Shown here: positions 5,595-35,763 of the stretch, one piece after another
Numbering within the stretch: the first letter of the stretch is position 1
Layout of the letters: each line of letters begins with the position of its first letter
DNA from: Minisyncoccota bacterium
GTDB lineage: Bacteria > Patescibacteriota > Minisyncoccia > Phycocordibacterales > UBA9973
Reading direction: 5' to 3'
Length of the DNA: 64,000 nt
NCBI GenBank assembly: GCA_041664605.1
Contig: JBAYKO010000001.1
Location: forward strand, 83,586-147,585
The notes under the pieces: model-generated
Databases searched by the model: none
What the model was told of the DNA's origin: nothing
Seen by the model: only the letters and a program-made list of their open reading frames with translations
Position numbers and translations under genes: made by a program

Positions 5595-6920
5595 AATTTT
5601 AGTAATTCTAGGTCCAGATGGAGTATCTTCTATATTGTAACCAGCAGTAGCACTAATTTGGCGAAATCTATCAGCTTCTTCCCAGTTTTTTTCTTTACGA
5701 ACTATTTCTCTTGCTTCTACTAATTTTAAAATATCTTCTGGAATTTCTAAAGTTTCTTTTTCCAACAATTTAAAACCAAAAATTTGATCAATTATTTCGA
5801 TTGTTTTATATTTTCCCTCAGCATTCTCATCTCGTAAAAGTTCCCATAGTGAAGCCAATGCTTTGGGGGTGTTTAAATCTGAATTCATAGCTTCTTTAAA
5901 TTTGTCTAAATATTTTTCATTTATTTTTCCATCATTTTTTAAATCTTTAGAAATATTTTTTAGTCTGTTGTAGGAGTTTTGAGCATCGTCTAATGAATTT
6001 TTTGAAAAATCTGTTGGTTTCCTGTAGTGTGCCGATGTAACAAAATATCTTATAATTTCACCAGAATAACTTAGAAGTATGTCTCTTATTGTTTTAAAGT
6101 TTCCAAGGCTTTTACTCATTTTTATTCCATCGACATTTACCATTCCATTGTGAATCCAGAAATTTGCCATTTTTGCACCCCAAGCAGATTCACTTTGGGC
6201 AATCTCATCTTCATGGTGGGGAAAGATCAAATCTTGTCCACCTCCGTGAATGTCAAAAGGAATTCCCAGAATACTTTCAGACATAGCAGAACATTCTATA
6301 TGCCAACCTGGTCTACCTTTGCCAAATGGGGTATCCCATTCTGGTTCATTTGGTTTTGAAAATTTCCAAAGTACAAAATCTTCCTTATTCTTTTTTTCTC
6401 TATTTTCTAGAACCCGCGCACCAGATTTTAAATTTTCAATTTTTTGGTGGGACAGTTTTCCATATTCTTTGTATTTTGAAATATCAAAGTAAATTCCATC
6501 GTCTTTTATTGTATAAGCGTATTCTTTTTCAATAAGTAAAGTTACAAGATTTATCATTTGTTTGATATATTCTGTAGCTTTTGGTTCTACATCAGGTTTT
6601 TCTACTCCAATTTTCTCATAATCTTCAATATGAGCTTTTGTATTTTTTTCTGTTAAATCTTTTGTAGTCTCATGTAATTCGCGTGCTTTATCAATTATTT
6701 TGTCGTCAATATCAGTAATATTTGAAGCAAACATTACATCATAGCCTAGAAATCTTAAATATTTTCTTAAAATATCAAAAGTAATTTTCTGTCTTGCATG
6801 GCCTAAGTGGGGGACATCGTTTACTGTTGGTCCACAAACATACATTCTAACAGCACCTTCTTTTATGGGTTTAAATTCTTCTTCTTTTTTTGTGAGAGTG
6901 TTATAGAGTTTTAGAGACAT
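5592..6920 (-). CDS. cysS: Cysteinyl-tRNA synthetase
   Basis: HIGH (PHLGHAR), KMSKS (KMSKSLGN), CGPTVND zinc-site region. Confidence 0.93.
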   Translation of the reverse strand: MSLKLYNTLTKKEEEFKPIKEGAVRMYVCGPTVNDVPHLGHARQKITFDILRKYLRFLGYDVMFASNITDIDDKIIDKARELHETTKDLTEKNTKAHIEDYEKIGVEKPDVEPKATEYIKQMINLVTLLIEKEYAYTIKDDGIYFDISKYKEYGKLSHQKIENLKSGARVLENREKKNKEDFVLWKFSKPNEPEWDTPFGKGRPGWHIECSAMSESILGIPFDIHGGGQDLIFPHHEDEIAQSESAWGAKMANFWIHNGMVNVDGIKMSKSLGNFKTIRDILLSYSGEIIRYFVTSAHYRKPTDFSKNSLDDAQNSYNRLKNISKDLKNDGKINEKYLDKFKEAMNSDLNTPKALASLWELLRDENAEGKYKTIEIIDQIFGFKLLEKETLEIPEDILKLVEAREIVRKEKNWEEADRFRQISATAGYNIEDTPSGPRITKI

Positions 6921-6937: not shown

Positions 6938-7849
6938 TTATCTTAACCATTTTTTACTTTTGAAAATAAGCATTATTATCAGCACAGAAATTATCATTAT
7001 TGCTAGAATAATTTCAAAAGCATTCGGGTTTTGGGTAAAAGGTACACTAACATCCATTCCAAACACAAGAGGAATCAGAGAAATTGTAATTGGAATAAAG
7101 GTCAACATTGTAAGAGTTCTAATTATTCTGTTAGTCTTACTTGTTAGAAGGGAGTCGTTTGTGTCACGAAGATCATTTAGAATTTCTTTATGACTTTCTA
7201 CTGCGTTGTGAACTTTATTAAATTCTCCAATCATTATTACTAAATAATAAGAAAATTCTTCTCCAAAAAACCTCTTAGCGGTAGCCTCAAAAGATTTTAA
7301 TATTTCGAAGTGGAATCGTATAGCTTGTTTAAAATCAAGAAGTTTTCTATTTACATTAGAAATAGCTTGAACCATTTCTCTTTCTTTTTCTTCAAAAATT
7401 TTAACTTCTATTTCTCTTAATGAATTATTTATATCATCTAATTTATAAGACAAATGCCTGTAAAGATCTTTTATAATATGGAAAAATAAAAATCCAGCAT
7501 GACTTCCTATATTATCTTTATTTAACATAGAATTAATTTCGAATTTCTTTTCAAATTCATGTAGTGTATTTACAAATTCATAATGAACTGTAATTAAAAA
7601 ATCTTTTCCTATTATAAAATCAATTTCTTGATCACCCGAATCTTCTTTTGTGTGAGAGCAAGGAAAATGGAGAATGAGATAGATAAGATTATCATAAAGA
7701 TCAACCTTTGATCTTATTGTTTTATTTATAACTTCTTCTTCAATAATTTGTGGAATTTTAAACTCTCTGGATATTTCATCAATCTCGTCTTTTGTAGGAG
7801 ATTCAATATCTATCCATACCAACTTCTTGTACTTGTGTCTTGAAATCAT
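6938..7849 (-). CDS. corA: CorA/MIT-family divalent cation transporter (GMD variant of the GMN motif)
   Basis: Cytoplasmic N-domain plus two C-terminal TM helices with VFGMDVS. Confidence 0.7.
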   Translation of the reverse strand: MISRHKYKKLVWIDIESPTKDEIDEISREFKIPQIIEEEVINKTIRSKVDLYDNLIYLILHFPCSHTKEDSGDQEIDFIIGKDFLITVHYEFVNTLHEFEKKFEINSMLNKDNIGSHAGFLFFHIIKDLYRHLSYKLDDINNSLREIEVKIFEEKEREMVQAISNVNRKLLDFKQAIRFHFEILKSFEATAKRFFGEEFSYYLVIMIGEFNKVHNAVESHKEILNDLRDTNDSLLTSKTNRIIRTLTMLTFIPITISLIPLVFGMDVSVPFTQNPNAFEIILAIMIISVLIIMLIFKSKKWLR

Positions 7850-8028
7850 AAAAATTAGTTTCTAGTAACTAGTGTCTCCCACCTTTGGACGGGACAGGTA
7901 GTTTCTAGGGTTTTTTATTTGTAATATTATCCTTAATTATATCTTATTTTATTAGCTCAACCAAGGTAAAAAGTCTCTAATAAAGGGGGTATTGCATTTT
8001 TTGTAGTTTTCTGTAATATATAATCATT

Positions 8029-9886: not shown

Positions 9887-10501
9887 TTATTGACGATTTT
9901 TTAATGCATTTTTTATTGTATCACTATCAGAATATTCAAGTTCTGTGCCAGTAGAAAGTCCACGTCCTAAACTTGAAATTTTAAAAGAATATTTTTCTTG
10001 AAGTGGTGATAACATTTTTCTTATATAGATATCTGTATGTTCGCCGTGAGGATTTAAAGACATTGCAATTATTATTTCTTTTAATCCATTTTCTTTCAAA
10101 TCCTTCTCTACTCTTTGTAACAATTCTCTAATGCGAATTCTTTTCTCTGTATCTTTTTCTGTGATTGGAACAAGTCCTCCTAATATAAAATAATTTCCAC
10201 CATAAGTTCCACTTTTTTTCATACTTTCATAATCAGCGTCTTTTTCAATAACCATAAGTAGTGATTTGTCTGTATTTTTTCCAATACATATTTCACAAAA
10301 TTCTCTATCAGGATATTCGAAGTGCTTAAAACACATTTTACATTGAGAAGTTTGTTTTTTTAATTCAGAAATTAGATGCGTGAGTTCACTCACATAATCT
10401 TTATTTGAGGATAAAAGAAAATAAACAAAACGCTTGGCTTGCCTTTCGCCAATTCCGGGGAATTTTGCAAAATATTGAGATAGTTTATCGATTGGATTCA
10501 C
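9887..10501 (-). CDS. recR: Recombination protein RecR
   Basis: HhH (FPGIGERQAKRF), C4 zinc finger (CKMCF...CEIC), Toprim domain. The ORF-track start at 10522 is a TTG inside the repeat element. A GTG at 10499-10501 directly follows the element, as in the other copies. Confidence 0.85.
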   Translation of the reverse strand: MNPIDKLSQYFAKFPGIGERQAKRFVYFLLSSNKDYVSELTHLISELKKQTSQCKMCFKHFEYPDREFCEICIGKNTDKSLLMVIEKDADYESMKKSGTYGGNYFILGGLVPITEKDTEKRIRIRELLQRVEKDLKENGLKEIIIAMSLNPHGEHTDIYIRKMLSPLQEKYSFKISSLGRGLSTGTELEYSDSDTIKNALKNRQ

Positions 10502-10645
10502 CCCATTAGAAATAGGAAACAATCAAACGACTGTTTGTTTGATTGTTTCCATAGCTTATTAATTGTTTTGATAAATTTATCGATTTCATTTTTTATATAA
10601 TTTTTATTTTAATATCTTAACTGATAGATTTCTAACGGGACTCAT
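10502..10645 (-). repeat. Start-codon-abutting inverted-repeat element, copy D (dnaB-recR spacer)
   Basis: Distal end CATGAGTCCCGTTAGAAATCT (rc of 10625-10645). Proximal end CCTATTTCTAATGGG sits immediately before the recR GTG. Internal sequence is about 80% identical to copy E. Confidence 0.75.
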
Positions 10646-14791: not shown

Positions 14792-14935
14792 ATGAGTCCC
14801 GCCCGAAATCAATCAGTTAATATATTTAAATAAAAATTAAAATTACAATGAAATCAATAAATTTTGGAAAACAATCAATAAATTACGGAAATGCCAAAAC
14901 AGCTACTTGTTTAGGCATTTCCTATTTCTAACGGG
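14792..14935 (+). repeat. Start-codon-abutting inverted-repeat element, copy E (upstream ORF-PBP2 spacer)
   Basis: Begins 6 nt after the upstream stop codon with ATGAGTCCCGCCCGAAAT (degenerate distal repeat). Ends CCTATTTCTAACGGG directly before the PBP2 ATG. Internal hairpin GGAAATGCC...GGCATTTCC. Confidence 0.75.
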
Positions 14936-16636
14936 ATGAGAATATTCAAGAAAAAAAGAAAAATCTTTGAGATTGCTCCAGATGAAATATTTTTAGATTC
15001 AAAAAATATACCCCAATTTAATACCCAACAGATGGAGGGTAAAATTGAAAAACCAATCTCTAAAAAAACAACTGCTTTCCTGTGGTTATTTTTTCTCATA
15101 GTTATAAGTATTTTTACTTGGAAAATTTCAGCACTTCAGCTTGTAAAAGGTGAGTATTATTTTAAAAAAAGCCAAGATAACAGTTTAAATAGAAAAATTA
15201 TCTTTGCTGATAGGGGAATAATTTATGACAGGAATAATGTAAGACTTGCATGGAATAGTGAAATAATGGGTGACACTGGAGATATTAGTGAGAAATTTTT
15301 ACTTAGATCATATATAAAATCTCCAGGGTTATCTCATGTACTAGGATATGTTAGCTACCCTAAAAAAGATAAATCGGGAAATTACTGGAGAGAAGTATTT
15401 ACTGGAAAAGATGGCGTTGAAAAAAAATACGACAATATTTTAAAAGGAGAAAATGGTGAAAAACTTTTAGAAAAAGATGCCCTTAATACTATTCAGTCTG
15501 AGAGCGTTGTTAATCCATCTAAAAATGGTGATAATGTTGTTTTAAGTATTGACTCAGGAGTTCAAACAAAACTTTTTGAAGCTATAAAAAGTCTAGCAGG
15601 ATCTTCTTCTTATGTTGGTGGAGGTGGGGTTTTAATGGACATAAATAATGGAGAAATTTTAGCTATTACGAGTTACCCAGAATATGATTCCGAAATTATG
15701 TCACTAGGCAGTGATTCAAATACAATTGGAGATTATCAAAAAAGTAGTAGAAAACCATTTTTAAACAGAGCTTTAAATGTCTATGCTCCTGGATCTATTG
15801 TAAAACCCTTTATTGCTATGGGGGCATTAAATGAGCAGGTCATTGATCCATTAAAAAAAATATTAAGCACTGGATCTATTTCAATTCCTAATCCATATTT
15901 TCCAGATAAGCCATCTATTTTTAAAGACTGGAAGGCTCATGGTTGGGTAGATATGCGTCGTGCACTTGCAGTATCTTCTGACGTTTATTTTTATGAAGTT
16001 GGAGGGGGATACAAAGATCAAAAAGGTTTAGGAATTGTAAACATAGATAAGTATATGAAAATGTTTATGGTGGGAGAAAAAACTGGAGTTGATTTATATG
16101 GAGAAAATGAAGGAGTAATACCAACCCCAGAATGGAAAGAATTGAATTTTAATGGTGACCCATGGAGGGTTGGAGATACTTATCATACCTCAATTGGGCA
16201 ATATGGATTTCAGGTTTCCCCAATTCAAATGGTGCGTGCTATTTCTGCTATAGCAAATGACGGCACCCTTGTTTCTCCTCATGTTGTTTTGGGAGATAAA
16301 AATTTTGAAAATAAAACTGAAAAAATTGAATTAAATACAAGTTATTTTGATATTGTAAAAGAGGGGATGAGAGGAGTCGTAATGCCAGGAGGAACAGCTA
16401 CAATGCTTGATGTTCCTTATGTTAAAGTGGCAGCTAAAACTGGTAGTGCCCAAGTTGGAATTTCAAAAAAAAATATGCACGCCTGGGTTATAGGATTTTT
16501 CCCTTATGAAAAACCAAGATATGCTTTTGCAGTTTTAATGGAAAGTGGGCCATCTCAAGGAGCATCGGGAGCTCAATATGTAATGAGACAAGTTCTTGAT
16601 TGGATGAGTATAAATGCTCCGGAATATTTCAAGTAA
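14936..16636 (+). CDS. Class B penicillin-binding protein (PBP2/FtsI-type transpeptidase)
   Basis: N-terminal TM and dimerisation domain. Transpeptidase motifs SxxK (GSIVKPF), SSD (SxN), KTGS (KTGSAQ). Confidence 0.88.
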   Translation: MRIFKKKRKIFEIAPDEIFLDSKNIPQFNTQQMEGKIEKPISKKTTAFLWLFFLIVISIFTWKISALQLVKGEYYFKKSQDNSLNRKIIFADRGIIYDRNNVRLAWNSEIMGDTGDISEKFLLRSYIKSPGLSHVLGYVSYPKKDKSGNYWREVFTGKDGVEKKYDNILKGENGEKLLEKDALNTIQSESVVNPSKNGDNVVLSIDSGVQTKLFEAIKSLAGSSSYVGGGGVLMDINNGEILAITSYPEYDSEIMSLGSDSNTIGDYQKSSRKPFLNRALNVYAPGSIVKPFIAMGALNEQVIDPLKKILSTGSISIPNPYFPDKPSIFKDWKAHGWVDMRRALAVSSDVYFYEVGGGYKDQKGLGIVNIDKYMKMFMVGEKTGVDLYGENEGVIPTPEWKELNFNGDPWRVGDTYHTSIGQYGFQVSPIQMVRAISAIANDGTLVSPHVVLGDKNFENKTEKIELNTSYFDIVKEGMRGVVMPGGTATMLDVPYVKVAAKTGSAQVGISKKNMHAWVIGFFPYEKPRYAFAVLMESGPSQGASGAQYVMRQVLDWMSINAPEYFK

Positions 16637-31400: not shown

Positions 31401-31409
31401 TCTTTAATA

Positions 31410-31445
31410 AAATAAACCCCCGATCTAGATCGGGGGTTTATTTTA
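31410..31445. terminator. Bidirectional terminator (CCCCCGATCTAGATCGGGGG) between rpmA (+) and rplI (-)
   Basis: 20-nt palindromic GC stem 31417-31436 with A/T runs on both sides. Confidence 0.85.
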
Positions 31446-31889
31446 TTCTTCTCTTTCTATAATTAATTTAAAAGATGATTTTTTATTTTTTATATCAATC
31501 TGGATTTCGTATTCCCCAAGTTCCTTTATTGGTTTGTTTAAAACAAGAGCTTCTTCTGAAATTGTTATATTGTGAAGTTTTTGCATTTGAGAAATAATTT
31601 CTTTTTTGTTTACACCCGAGAATAAGCTTCCTGATTCACTTGCTCTTTCTTTTATTATTACAACTTTTCCTTTAATTTCGTCTAGATTTTTTATAAGAAG
31701 ATCATCTTGAATTTGTCTTTCTATTTGAACATTCTTTTTCATTTTTTCTATTTCCTTTGCAACTTCCGTGGTTGCAATTTTTGCTAATTTCTTGGGTATT
31801 AGAAAATTCATTGCAAATCCATCATTTACATCTTTGATATCATATTTATTTCCTATTCTAGGAACATTACTAAGTAATACAACTTTCAT
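31443..31889 (-). CDS. rplI: 50S ribosomal protein L9
   Basis: MKVVLLSNVPRIGNKYDIKDVNDGFAMNFLIP N-domain, long helix, C-domain. Confidence 0.9.
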   Translation of the reverse strand: MKVVLLSNVPRIGNKYDIKDVNDGFAMNFLIPKKLAKIATTEVAKEIEKMKKNVQIERQIQDDLLIKNLDEIKGKVVIIKERASESGSLFSGVNKKEIISQMQKLHNITISEEALVLNKPIKELGEYEIQIDIKNKKSSFKLIIEREE

Positions 31890-32015
31890 CCCATTAGAAG
31901 TAGATCGCGATCAATTCACGCATCTGGTTAATTAGGTTATTAATATTTATTATATTTGATTTCATAATTATTGTTTATTGTTTAAATTGCGATCGCGACT
32001 TCTAACGGGATTCAT
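31890..32015 (-). repeat. Start-codon-abutting inverted-repeat element, copy C (ctpA-rplI intercistronic spacer)
   Basis: Distal ATGAATCCCGTTAGAAGTCGCGATCGC and proximal GATCGCGATCTACTTCTAATGGG give an extended inverted repeat of about 25 nt including GATCGCGATC palindromes. It abuts the rplI ATG and begins 10 nt after the ctpA stop. Confidence 0.75.
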
Positions 32016-32024
32016 ATTAAAAAT

Positions 32025-33233
32025 TTATTTTAATAATTCAATGGCTTTATCAAATTGAGGATCTTTACCTTTTTCTGCGTCCTCTATTTTAAAAGGTACA
32101 CTAAAATCTGGGGTAAGTCCATTTTCTGAAATTGATATTCCGTTTGGAGTAAGCCATTTAGCAATAGTTATTTTCAGTGAAGTATCTGGAGTTACTTTTA
32201 TTAATTCTTGAACAGAACCTTTTCCAAAAGTCTTATCCCCCACCAACCTAGCTATTTTATGTTCTTGTAATGCACCTGCTAAAATTTCAGAGGCTGATGC
32301 AGATCCCCCATCTACAAGTATAATCATTTGTAAGTTTTCATTAAAAATATCATACCCCTTACTTCTATAAATTTCTTGTTCTTGTCTATTACCAAAATCT
32401 TCAATCACTACGGTTTTCCCCTCAGGTAAAAACCAACTAGCCATATCGATTGAAGCTTCTAAATATCCACCGGGGTTACCTCTTAAATCTAAAATTAATT
32501 TTGATGTTTTAGTTTCAGTAAATTTTAATAATGCTTGTCTAAATAATTCTGGAGAATTTGCAGAAAAATTATAAAGTCTTATCACAAAAATATCATCCTT
32601 TTGTTCTATATCTATTGTGGGAATATTTATTTTCTCCCTAGTTAGAGTTATTTCTTTTGGTTCCTTAAGACCAATTCTATATATTGTTAATTTGACCTTA
32701 GTTCCCACTTCCCCTCTTATTGTTTTTATTGCTTCGTCTATAGAAAAATCAGCAGTTGATTTATCGTCTATTTTTATTATTTTATCTCCAGTTTTAATTC
32801 CCGCTTTATACGCAGGAGTATCTTTAAGTGGCGCAATTACAGTTAAAATTTTATCTTTCATTCCAATTTCTATTCCAACTCCGCCAAATTCCCCGCTTAT
32901 TGTTTCTTCAAAAGCTTTATTTTCTTCGGGTGTAAAAAATGTTGTGTAAGGATCATTTAATGATGAAGTAAGACCTGATGTTGCTCCCCAGACTCTATCT
33001 TGATCAGATATATCTTTTGCCCAAGGAGATTTCTCGTTTATAAGATTCCAGACTTTCCAAAATGGTTCAAAATCCGCTTCAGATTTAAACGGTGTTTCTT
33101 TATTTAAAATATTTGTAATTTTTTGAACAGATGGCCTATTATTAAAACCTAAATAAACACCGAAAAAAAATATTCCGGCCACAATTAGCACTATTAATAT
33201 TATAGAAATTATATTTTTTTTATTTCTTACCAT
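32025..33233 (-). CDS. Carboxyl-terminal processing protease (S41, CtpA-like) with PDZ domain
   Basis: N-terminal TM, PDZ domain, catalytic LILDLRGNPGGYL, S41 Ser/Lys dyad region. Confidence 0.85.
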   Translation of the reverse strand: MVRNKKNIISIILIVLIVAGIFFFGVYLGFNNRPSVQKITNILNKETPFKSEADFEPFWKVWNLINEKSPWAKDISDQDRVWGATSGLTSSLNDPYTTFFTPEENKAFEETISGEFGGVGIEIGMKDKILTVIAPLKDTPAYKAGIKTGDKIIKIDDKSTADFSIDEAIKTIRGEVGTKVKLTIYRIGLKEPKEITLTREKINIPTIDIEQKDDIFVIRLYNFSANSPELFRQALLKFTETKTSKLILDLRGNPGGYLEASIDMASWFLPEGKTVVIEDFGNRQEQEIYRSKGYDIFNENLQMIILVDGGSASASEILAGALQEHKIARLVGDKTFGKGSVQELIKVTPDTSLKITIAKWLTPNGISISENGLTPDFSVPFKIEDAEKGKDPQFDKAIELLK

Positions 33234-35099: not shown

Positions 35100-35660
35100 T
35101 TAGTAATAATATCCTCCCTTTACTTTAAATTTCTTTTTATCAAAAGTTACTACCATATACCAGTTCCAGGATACGGTCTTATCATCTTTTCCCACGAAAT
35201 CAAACCATATTCTTGGAAATATTTCTTTATTAATCCACCTTTCTGGTTCTTCTGACGCAGGATCGACAATAATTATATTTTTATCAGTTACATTTACAAC
35301 AACACTATAATGATCATCATTTTCATCAAACCAACCAATAATAACCGGTAATTTTTCTTCACGAATAAAATATTCCAATTCTTCTATTGATCCGTTTTCT
35401 TTTACATAAACAAAGCCACCAATTTCTTTTATGGCCTGGATCATTCCTTCATGCTCTGTCCCCTCACCTCTTCCCATTCCTGAAATACTACAAGCAACAT
35501 TAGCTAACTGTTCTTCTGTGTGATTTTTACCAAAATATGAAAGTAAAATTTTTAAAGAGGCTGGACCACAAAGTCCCATTGATTGTTGAAAAGGTTCCAC
35601 TTTAATTTTCTGCTCATCTCTGTTTACTGTATTTAATTTTTTCTTTTTCTTCCACATCAT
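35100..35660 (-). CDS. Papain-like cysteine peptidase, C39-like (Peptidase_C39_2-type) domain protein
   Basis: Catalytic Cys in GLCGPASLKILLSYFG and His in DDHYSVVVNV, with Asp/Asn downstream. Confidence 0.6.
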   Translation of the reverse strand: MMWKKKKKLNTVNRDEQKIKVEPFQQSMGLCGPASLKILLSYFGKNHTEEQLANVACSISGMGRGEGTEHEGMIQAIKEIGGFVYVKENGSIEELEYFIREEKLPVIIGWFDENDDHYSVVVNVTDKNIIIVDPASEEPERWINKEIFPRIWFDFVGKDDKTVSWNWYMVVTFDKKKFKVKGGYYY

Positions 35661-35763
35661 CCCATTAGAAATAGTTTATTTAAAACAAACTATATTTTTA
35701 CTCTGATAATTTAATCGCCTTTATTTTTAAAATTTTATTCCGCTAATTTCTAACGGGACAAGT
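35661..35763 (-). repeat. Start-codon-abutting inverted-repeat element, copy B (upstream of C39-like peptidase)
   Basis: Distal CTTGTCCCGTTAGAAATTAG (lacks the ATG). Proximal hairpin ATAGTTT...AAACTAT followed by TTTCTAATGGG then ATGATG. Confidence 0.7.

Follow-up and report, generated by a model that had tools for sequence, protein, structure and literature searches.

In the 64,000-nucleotide stretch of Minisyncoccota bacterium DNA analyzed here (the window), the 126 bases at 31890-32015, between ctpA and rplI, are inserted DNA. The flanking repeats and the gene order of relatives show that the insert, Copy C, entered at the TGAA of rplI positions +2 to +5, within a ctpA-rplI spacer that formerly measured about 9 nt, and that its terminal A together with the duplicated TG re-creates the rplI ATG, the old ATGAA being left at the distal end. 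Copy C is best read as an ORF-less derivative of elements in which arms of the same family flank a GIY-YIG nuclease gene. When the results are considered jointly, it is probable that Copy C is a non-autonomous insert of a nuclease-mobilised start-codon family and that it is translated in relay within the mRNA.

Insertion of Copy C into the rplI start codon

The features of the region are listed from ctpA to rplI.

32025..33233, minus strand: ctpA, with its stop codon TAA at 32027-32025
31889..32010, minus strand: Copy C, 122 bp from terminal inverted repeat to terminal inverted repeat
32011..32014, minus strand: target-site duplication, distal copy, TGAA (plus strand TTCA); with 32015 it forms the former start ATGAA
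31968..32015, minus strand: mini-ORF of 15 codons, MNPVRSRDRNLNNKQ and TAA stop, opening at the duplicated start; its stop lies 2 nt before the next ATG
31998..32010, minus strand: distal (L) arm, T + CCCGTTAGAAGT
31990..31997, minus strand: extended stem, distal half, CGCGATCG
31894..31965, minus strand: uORF of 23 codons, MKSNIININNLINQMRELIAIYF and stop, from a conserved internal ATG to the arm TAA, 4 nt before the rplI ATG
31906..31913, minus strand: extended stem, proximal half, TGATCGCG, part of GATCGCGATC
31902..31905, minus strand: 4-nt bulge ATCT, on the proximal side only (TCCT in G+C-rich relatives)
31889..31901, minus strand: proximal (R) arm, ACTTCTAATGGG + A, including the TAA at 31896..31894
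31885..31888, minus strand: target-site duplication, proximal copy, TGAA (plus strand TTCA), which is bases 2-5 of rplI
31443..31889, minus strand: rplI, with its start at 31889

On the minus strand, the ctpA TAA is followed by 9 nt, ATGAAT, CCCGTTAGAAGT, CGCGATCGC and an A-rich interior; the proximal half then reads GATCGCG, ATCT, ACTTCTAATGGG and the rplI start ATGAAA. The spacing between ctpA and rplI amounts to 135 nt in the window. A sequence-only reading of this DNA had proposed that an element occupies the whole gap, and the sequence and ORF coordinates bear this out. It had further placed the proximal end in contact with the rplI ATG and the distal end about 10 nt from the ctpA stop: the proximal arm ACTTCTAATGGG (31901..31890) does directly adjoin the start, and the distal end, ATGAATCCCGTTAGAAGT (32015..31998), was measured to lie 9 nt past the stop. 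Its coordinates and strings for 31890-32015, including the distal end, are correct. Absent from it were the target-site duplication and the other evidence of insertion, the contribution of the terminal A to the ATG, the recognition of the distal ATGAAT as a duplicated rplI start, the strict orientation, the uORF that ends in the arm, and the link to arm-flanked GIY-YIG nuclease genes.

The same reading had described extended ends that form a terminal inverted repeat of about 25 nt. The extension is real, but the repeat is not continuous over that length. Instead, the terminal inverted repeats (YCCCGTTAGAART) span 13 bp and are followed, after a 4-nt bulge, by an extension of 8 bp, CGCGATCG. 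In terms of pairing, 13 bp that include the A of the ATG are followed by the one-sided bulge (AUCU, on the proximal strand) and then by 8 bp (CGCGAUCG/UGAUCGCG). The A at 31889 is at once the last base of Copy C and the first base of the rplI ATG. An exact GATCGCGATC is present only at 31903-31912, and the distal module reads GCGATCGCGAC. A check for the module on further copies gave a divided result: a CGCGATCG-type module is absent from all four other copies in the window, but it is a subfamily signature in other metagenomes.

The TGAA that flanks Copy C is a perfect 4-bp direct repeat, and the site without the insert can be read from relatives. In three Paceibacterota loci (L123, L125 and L129), the order ctpA, rplI and convergent rpmA (ribosomal protein L27) is retained, with ctpA-rplI gaps of 10, 13 and 12 nt, respectively. 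These short gaps identify Copy C as an insertion at rplI +2 to +5. Furthermore, deletion of 31889-32010 and one TGAA from the window yields TAAatttttaatATGAAAGTT, with a 9-nt gap that is collinear with the three relatives. At best, the L9 homologues found share about 62% identity with the L9 protein of the window. An exact search of the JGI metagenomes for an empty ctpA-rplI allele returned no matches; the window L9 protein is 100% identical to P0001, which assigns the window to a Candidatus Paceibacterota (Patescibacteria) MAG, and the element is present in both of the listed contigs that encode the identical protein. In a third lineage (L126-L128, approximately 2476-2575), ctpA and rplI are separated by a different filler of about 100 nt, which contains an AGGAG box and is unrelated to the arm family.

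The arm family and its start-codon sites

With at most one mismatch allowed, the arm motif CCCRTTAGAAGT has 10 matches in the window, where shuffles predict 0.5, and nhmmer, run with an HMM of the copies, detects five full copies and no more. The four besides Copy C are as follows.

10501..10640, minus strand: copy 1, dnaB to recR; rebuilt start GTG; uORF at 10589..10506
14797..14936, plus strand: copy 2, hypothetical gene to the gene for penicillin-binding protein 2 (PBP2); distal arm degenerate; uORF at 14848..14931
35660..35758, minus strand: copy 4, ACTTGT subfamily; no visible duplication and no relay ORF
42316..42436, minus strand: copy 5, rpmE to prfA; duplication TGAG; internal ATG at 42409 in frame with prfA

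Beyond the window, a scan of one genome per species located both arms in at least 120 loci. The hosts are nearly all Patescibacteria of many classes, and their G+C contents range from 28% to 61%; other labels, such as Deltaproteobacteria/Thermodesulfobacteriota, Planctomycetota, Omnitrophota and Nitrospirae, apply to a minority. No element was found when viral contigs were scanned. The base outside each 12-nt arm is complementary to its counterpart in 128 of 131 elements (C/G in 70, T/A in 58), and the family repeat is therefore 13 bp long. The family ends can be written as the 13-bp terminal inverted repeats Y-CCCGTTAGAART ... AYTTCTAAYGGG-R, with a 4-bp target duplication; arm variants include AGAAGT, AGAAAT and AGAGAT. 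The flanking repeat is perfect at all four positions in 88 of the 131 elements, where it is TGAA/TTCA (43), TGGA/TCCA (9), TATG/CATA (7), TGAG/CTCA (7), TAAA (6) or TTGA/TCAA (5), among others; a few elements have a 3-bp duplication, TGA.

The position of these insertions is highly specific. In 75 of the 131 elements, the start codon of an ORF of at least 70 aa exactly abuts the arm (offset 0; ATG 50, GTG 26). As the start directly follows the arm, it is composed of the terminal A or G of the element and the duplicated TG, and the pre-insertion target logo is A|T-G-(A 78%)-(A 84%), that is, A|TG[A>G][A>G]. All five window copies lie on start codons (P = 2.8e-4, even in the narrowest model, with TGAR-only targets and tolerance limited to intergenic and start sites), and all five run in the same direction as the gene they precede, with the proximal arm touching its start codon. 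On the other side, 36 of the 75 start-class elements have an upstream ORF in the same direction whose end lies no more than 15 nt from the distal arm. This upstream ORF often overlaps the start as an ATGA stop/start, which the duplication splits neatly, and the distal arm supplies it with a TAG stop in one frame.

Two further insertion classes were found: TATG sites, which place the start codon 2 nt away from the arm, and sites at the upstream edge of -35-like TTGAC boxes. To the latter belong L035, L090 (5050-5141), L116 and L197, in which a TTGA duplication preserves the box; L116 also has a TATAAT about 18 nt downstream of it. Tandem elements that share a single 4-bp duplication are seen in L020 (approximately 7780-7895), L095 (approximately 3889), L151 and L172 (approximately 5745-5900), one of the pair being a GIY-YIG element in L095 and in L172. 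Conversely, mini-elements of 43-48 nt that consist of the arms alone occur in L106 (4522-4564 and 7079-7124), a contig labelled Planctomycetaceae; the second has a CCCG duplication. The tandems and the arm-only versions together point to a strong site preference and to the arms as the essential part of the element. The stems that adjoin the arm covary. G-U wobbles in the arms, counted by eye, are distributed 7 to 2 toward the sense strand, a sample too small and too non-independent to carry weight, and BLAST of the element interiors for orientation gave too few matches to be of use.

Copy C itself resembles an element from another MAG (L034) over its full length. This element, that of L073 and the G+C-rich relatives have the 13-bp repeat, the 0/4-nt offset and the CGCGATC or CGCGGAC of Copy C. 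A metagenome scan with the L end alone (CCCGTTAGAARTCGCGATCGC), which is blind to genes, recovered 60 loci with 33 unique complete elements, and these precede 30 different gene starts. The R end lies on the start codon at offset 0 in 31 of the 33, the L end in none; position and orientation are thus essentially fixed in this subfamily. Another subfamily, to which the copy at 35660-35758 belongs (with L026, L075 and L118), always has ACTTGT in its distal flank, in four unrelated genomes, and always carries the T variant of the proximal arm (AATGGG); the duplication is absent from it.

Full-length relatives encode a GIY-YIG nuclease

Distant arm pairs with matching duplications were sought across all fetched loci (1.39 Mb), and the filter for target-site duplications exposed a GIY-YIG element. 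At L088:6219-6501, family arms and a TGAA duplication enclose an interior that is one ORF of 93 aa, which spans from the duplicated ATG to the TAA of the proximal arm. The protein (L088:6216-6494) matches Pfam PF01541, GIY-YIG, with E = 2e-17 and 63.6 bits against a cut-off of 22.6, and its closest solved relatives are the UPF0213 proteins of PDB entries 1ZG2 (E = 6e-6) and 1YWL (5e-3). As judged from this and the similar loci below, full-length family members that encode a nuclease exist, and in most of them the ORF starts at the start codon of the host gene.

These full-length elements measure 276-283 bp and consist almost entirely of one 86-93-aa GIY-YIG (UPF0213-type) nuclease ORF. They have the arms, duplications, site classes, orientation and part of the R end in common with the short elements. 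In most copies the nuclease ORF opens at the duplicated ATG of the host gene, and can therefore do without a separate start signal; its end is the arm TAA, 4 nt before the rebuilt start. The junctions in L191, L193, L196, L197, L136 and L140 likewise show family arms, site classes and duplications (TGAA, TGGA, TATG, TTGA). In L191, the stop of the upstream gene and the nuclease ATG overlap in the sequence ATGA, and a GTG 4 nt past the nuclease TAA serves as the new start of the downstream gene; L193 has the same layout with TGAG, and L196 has a TATG duplication. In L197, the TTGA duplication lies at a -35-like box and the nuclease starts at an internal ATG. A second GIY-YIG clade (L095, L136, L140) has AGAGAT arms, and its ORF starts at an internal ATG just inside the L arm. 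The 3' end of this clade, GGC GCT TCC TAT CTC TAA, is identical to the asymmetric motif TTCCTAY-TCTAACGGG at the R end of copies 1, 2 and 5.

The L088 nuclease has 956 homologue clusters, mostly from Patescibacteria, under the source names 'GIY-YIG nuclease family protein' and 'putative endonuclease'. Among the best 120 of these 956 clusters, PVR[SN] occurs within the first 30 residues in 75, the N-terminus is M-x-P-V-R in 53, as encoded by ATG-AAT plus the L arm, and the C-terminus is DF or GF in 87, as encoded by the R arm. GIY-YIG proteins have been listed among the genes for which a transfer from Patescibacteria to other bacteria is predicted, and such transfer fits the few hosts outside the Patescibacteria. 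No GIY-YIG gene is present in the 64-kb window, and, outside the arms and the TCCTA motif, the interiors of the window copies show no significant similarity to the GIY-YIG elements compared with them. More distant GIY-YIG genes, with arms that are not recognisable, were seen in L001 (4427-4645) and L055 (1953-2150); the former apparently lies between tRNA-like sequences.

Reading frames inside the short elements

From ctpA to rplI, Copy C presents a chain of closely spaced frames: the ctpA TAA, 9 nt, the 15-codon ORF, 2 nt, the 23-codon uORF, 4 nt and the rplI ATG. The proximal arm, TTC TAA YGGG RTG A, treats its three frames differently, in that the first stops at the TAA, 4 nt before the start, the second stops at the TGA that overlaps the ATGA, and the third continues in frame into the gene. 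With the T variant of the arm, as at 31894-31889 (minus strand UAAUGGGAUGA), the uORF stop overlaps an AUG (UAAUG), and the two-codon frame that begins there ends at the UGA overlapping the rplI AUG, giving a zero-distance stop/start chain. An alignment of the subfamily shows that an internal ATATGAA is conserved about 75 nt upstream of the gene start and that the sense strand is A-rich (50% A, 27% T).

A relay ORF was defined as an ATG-started frame that begins at least 70 nt upstream and is open as far as the arm. Of 32 subfamily members, 26 have such a frame (stopping at the TAA in 17 and fusing in frame in 9), against a mean of 12% and a maximum of 28% in 200 composition-matched shuffles and 25% in reverse-complemented interiors; as the members have a common ancestry, the counts depend in part on one another. 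When all 74 start-class elements are taken together, the values are 38% versus 16%; copy 4 and roughly half of the start-class elements lack the relay ORF. Related uORFs of 27 codons are found in copies 1 and 2, and in copy 5 an ATG lies in frame with prfA, 31 codons ahead of it.

Five related metagenome contigs (L137, L148, L152, L177, L181) have the element at the start of the gene for ribosomal protein L4. Here a 24-codon frame from the internal ATG is open into the gene and may therefore be a real N-terminal extension; the L4 N-termini differ in length. Mechanical ORF calls at 41342-42409 (prfA) and 9887-10522 (recR) traverse the proximal arm and give '...PISNG-M/V' N-terminal extensions. 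Automatic annotation probably misplaces many starts in such genomes.

Transcription context and predicted RNA fold

No intrinsic terminator (a G+C-rich hairpin with a T run) is found at 31890-32024, within the ctpA-rplI gap, and Copy C was rejected as such a terminator on this ground. The nearest terminator-like site is a bidirectional 19-bp hairpin at 31406-31447, between convergent rpmA and rplI. Promoter-like matches in the ctpA-rplI region number 7 against a shuffle expectation of 10.0, that is, they are not in excess. A candidate promoter within Copy C, TAAACA-17-TATAAT at 31977..31949, was discarded, as its box is not conserved in the subfamily alignment and the region is not enriched; the TAYTTC of the arm was likewise discarded as a -10 box, its final T being missing. 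Given the lack of a terminator-like site, promoter matches at background level and gaps of 10-13 nt in relatives, co-transcription of ctpA, Copy C and rplI, which the sequence-only reading had taken as almost certain, is likely and is the most economical reading.

The sense-strand RNA of Copy C is predicted to fold with -32.6 kcal/mol (z = -5.2), a value that none of 200 shuffles equals, into a helix of 22 pairs: the 13, the 8 and one between the flanking bases. At the Rfam gathering score, only two tRNAs match in the window and nothing matches Copy C; permissive Rfam scans added only sub-threshold matches to generic hairpins.

The window as a whole has 30% G+C, and only 3 of its 64 genes (ORFs of at least 100 aa) are preceded by a Shine-Dalgarno-like motif. 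Initiation may thus proceed without Shine-Dalgarno pairing, in part perhaps on leaderless mRNAs. TANNNT hexamers lie 5-9 nt before the ATG in 25 of the 64 genes against 17.8 expected. The idea that the elements target leaderless transcription start sites is weakened by this modest enrichment of -10-like hexamers and by the operon-internal position of rplI.

Proposed mechanism and alternative explanations

The results can be assembled into the following model. A GIY-YIG nuclease, or a complex with the nuclease, would mobilise both full-length and miniature copies. The A|TGRR preference and the single orientation would arise from the needs of nuclease expression, because only sense insertions at a start codon would express the nuclease. 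The host would tolerate such insertions because they leave both neighbouring ORFs intact and place the host start 4 nt beyond a translated ORF. In the mRNA with ctpA and rplI, Copy C would fold into the 22-pair hairpin and mask the rplI AUG, and ribosomes on the 15- and 23-codon mini-ORFs would open the hairpin. These ribosomes would terminate 4 nt from the rplI AUG and then reinitiate, in a host that is almost without Shine-Dalgarno motifs.

A bolder version of this model, which we advance only tentatively, is that the ~90-aa UPF0213-type GIY-YIG nuclease itself mobilises an unrecognised, ultra-compact (~280 bp) cut-and-paste class, of which the miniatures are now hairpin-plus-uORF leaders. 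First codons would be targeted in one orientation, the nuclease would use the host start codon and whatever brings about initiation there, and a rebuilt ATG or GTG would be returned 4 nt past the stop; across the Patescibacteria, the miniatures would then lead housekeeping genes, including ribosomal protein genes. We know of no GIY-YIG enzyme shown to catalyse cut-and-paste transposition with a 4-bp duplication, and the nuclease could instead be cargo or a homing helper.

The latter possibility forms part of an alternative in which Copy C is an ordinary MITE moved by an unseen DDE transposase, for example one related to IS1380/piggyBac, and the GIY-YIG ORF is cargo or an aid to retention or homing, comparable to TnpB of IS200/IS605 elements. 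Inverted repeats with a fixed 4-bp duplication are the classical DDE signature; piggyBac has 4-bp duplications and repeats that start with CCC, IS1380 is its prokaryotic outgroup, and minimal copies of 43-48 nt with arms only do exist. However, about 1.39 Mb of loci contain no transposase-like ORF between arms, as judged by eye. Distant arm pairs, inspected in the same way, enclose only host genes (AspRS, acetate kinase, ParB, sugar transferases), and the sole arm-to-arm ORF found is the GIY-YIG gene, whose termini the arms encode. In addition, TTAA accounts for none of the 88 perfect duplications. We therefore consider this explanation unlikely.

The short frames and the hairpin bear on a second alternative, namely that Copy C, irrespective of its mobile origin, is a domesticated cis-regulatory leader whose hairpin and uORF are kept because they set the translation of rplI by coupling, attenuation or RNase III processing. 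Consistent with such a role, relay ORFs are strongly enriched, the hairpin has a z-score of -5.2, the arm-adjacent stems covary, and at the L4 gene start the five related contigs have kept the element, with its frame open into the gene. Yet the nearest relatives found lack the ctpA-rplI insertion, the peptide sequences are not conserved, the open frames may be leftovers of the nuclease ORF, and roughly half of the start-class elements do without a relay ORF. Such a function for Copy C thus seems quite improbable. Neither the transposase nor the leader explanation is mutually exclusive with the nuclease-mobilised insert favored here.

A REP/REPIN-type palindrome moved by a REP-associated tyrosine transposase (RAYT), or an integron attC site, would also be short, repeated, hairpin-forming and placed between co-directional genes, but both are scarcely credible, because REPIN/IS200-type insertion leaves no target duplication (here present in 88 of 131 elements) and the GTAG head is absent, because the 5' RYYYAAC and 3' GTTRRRY expected of attC appear in reversed order on both strands (GTTAGAA ... 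TTCTAAC) beside housekeeping genes, and because no Rfam family matches.

Comparison with known systems

If the nuclease-mobilised reading is correct, the 'intergenic repeats' of streamlined Patescibacteria genomes would be insertions exactly on the start codons of essential genes, the affected starts including those of rplI, prfA, recR, the PBP2 gene, rplD and rpsE. The calling of gene starts would change accordingly, many GTG starts and 'ISNGM...' N-terminal extensions being artefacts of the elements. The family would represent a mobile element without expression signals of its own, which borrows and then returns the host start codon, and a natural system for Shine-Dalgarno-independent initiation and reinitiation. 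It would also give a concrete role to the minimal GIY-YIG proteins of the UPF0213 family, which is widespread and has solved structures but, to our knowledge, no known function. Should the nuclease prove to be the transposase, the elements would constitute a new class. A literature search by arm sequence and topic brought up no account of the arms, of the short elements or of an arm-flanked GIY-YIG element.

Copy C has the characteristics of a MITE. It is 122 bp long with ORFs of only 15 and 23 codons, its 13-bp repeats are common to 131 elements, and it has a 4-bp duplication, TGAA. Five copies are dispersed over 64 kb, and the empty ctpA-rplI site is seen in L123, L125 and L129. As candidate partners, the arm-to-arm GIY-YIG elements share repeats, duplications and sites with it, none of them lying in the window. 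With piggyBac and IS1380, for which a TTAA target (piggyBac), 4-5-bp duplications and CC(C) ends are described, the arm family has in common only the 4-bp duplication and the repeats that start with CCC; it differs by the lack of a TTAA preference, by an extra variable base before the CCC, and in that no DDE transposase was found among the ORFs inspected by eye between arm pairs.

The candidate partner resembles a free-standing GIY-YIG homing gene to which inverted repeats, a duplication and many target sites have been added. The Seg genes are free-standing GIY-YIG homing endonuclease genes of T-even phages, which spread by 'intronless homing'. As in the elements described here, a small GIY-YIG nuclease gene is placed among essential genes in the same orientation and uses the expression signals of its neighbors. 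Unlike the Seg genes, the present elements encode the ~90-aa catalytic domain alone between 13-bp inverted repeats, with a 4-bp duplication; they occupy many unrelated gene starts per genome, use the host start codon in most copies and are accompanied by abundant ORF-less miniatures. In classical homing, the empty allele is cleaved and the gene spreads into that one site by homologous repair; the spread of these elements over many non-homologous gene starts, with duplications, speaks more for transposition. The UPF0213/YhbQ-type proteins 1ZG2 and 1YWL, annotated as hypothetical proteins, match the element nuclease in size and in their single domain; we know of no report of mobility for proteins of this type.

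Among short repeats, the Correia elements of Neisseria can be likened to Copy C in their length of 100-150 bp, terminal inverted repeats, many copies, co-transcription and long RNA hairpins. They differ in that they duplicate TA, have unrelated repeats of 26 bp and are not known to be locked to start codons or to one orientation. The Rickettsia palindromic elements are tolerated in reading frames and can add residues, as may be compared with the in-frame 24-aa extensions in L137, L148 and L152, and with copy 5; they lie inside genes, however, and not on start codons, and no nuclease-encoding full-length form of them is known to us. Finally, the arrangement at the foot of the hairpin, in which a uORF ends 4 nt before the downstream start or overlaps it, is that of termination-reinitiation coupling. 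Here it is a mobile element that brings in the finished arrangement, which did not evolve as an operon feature.
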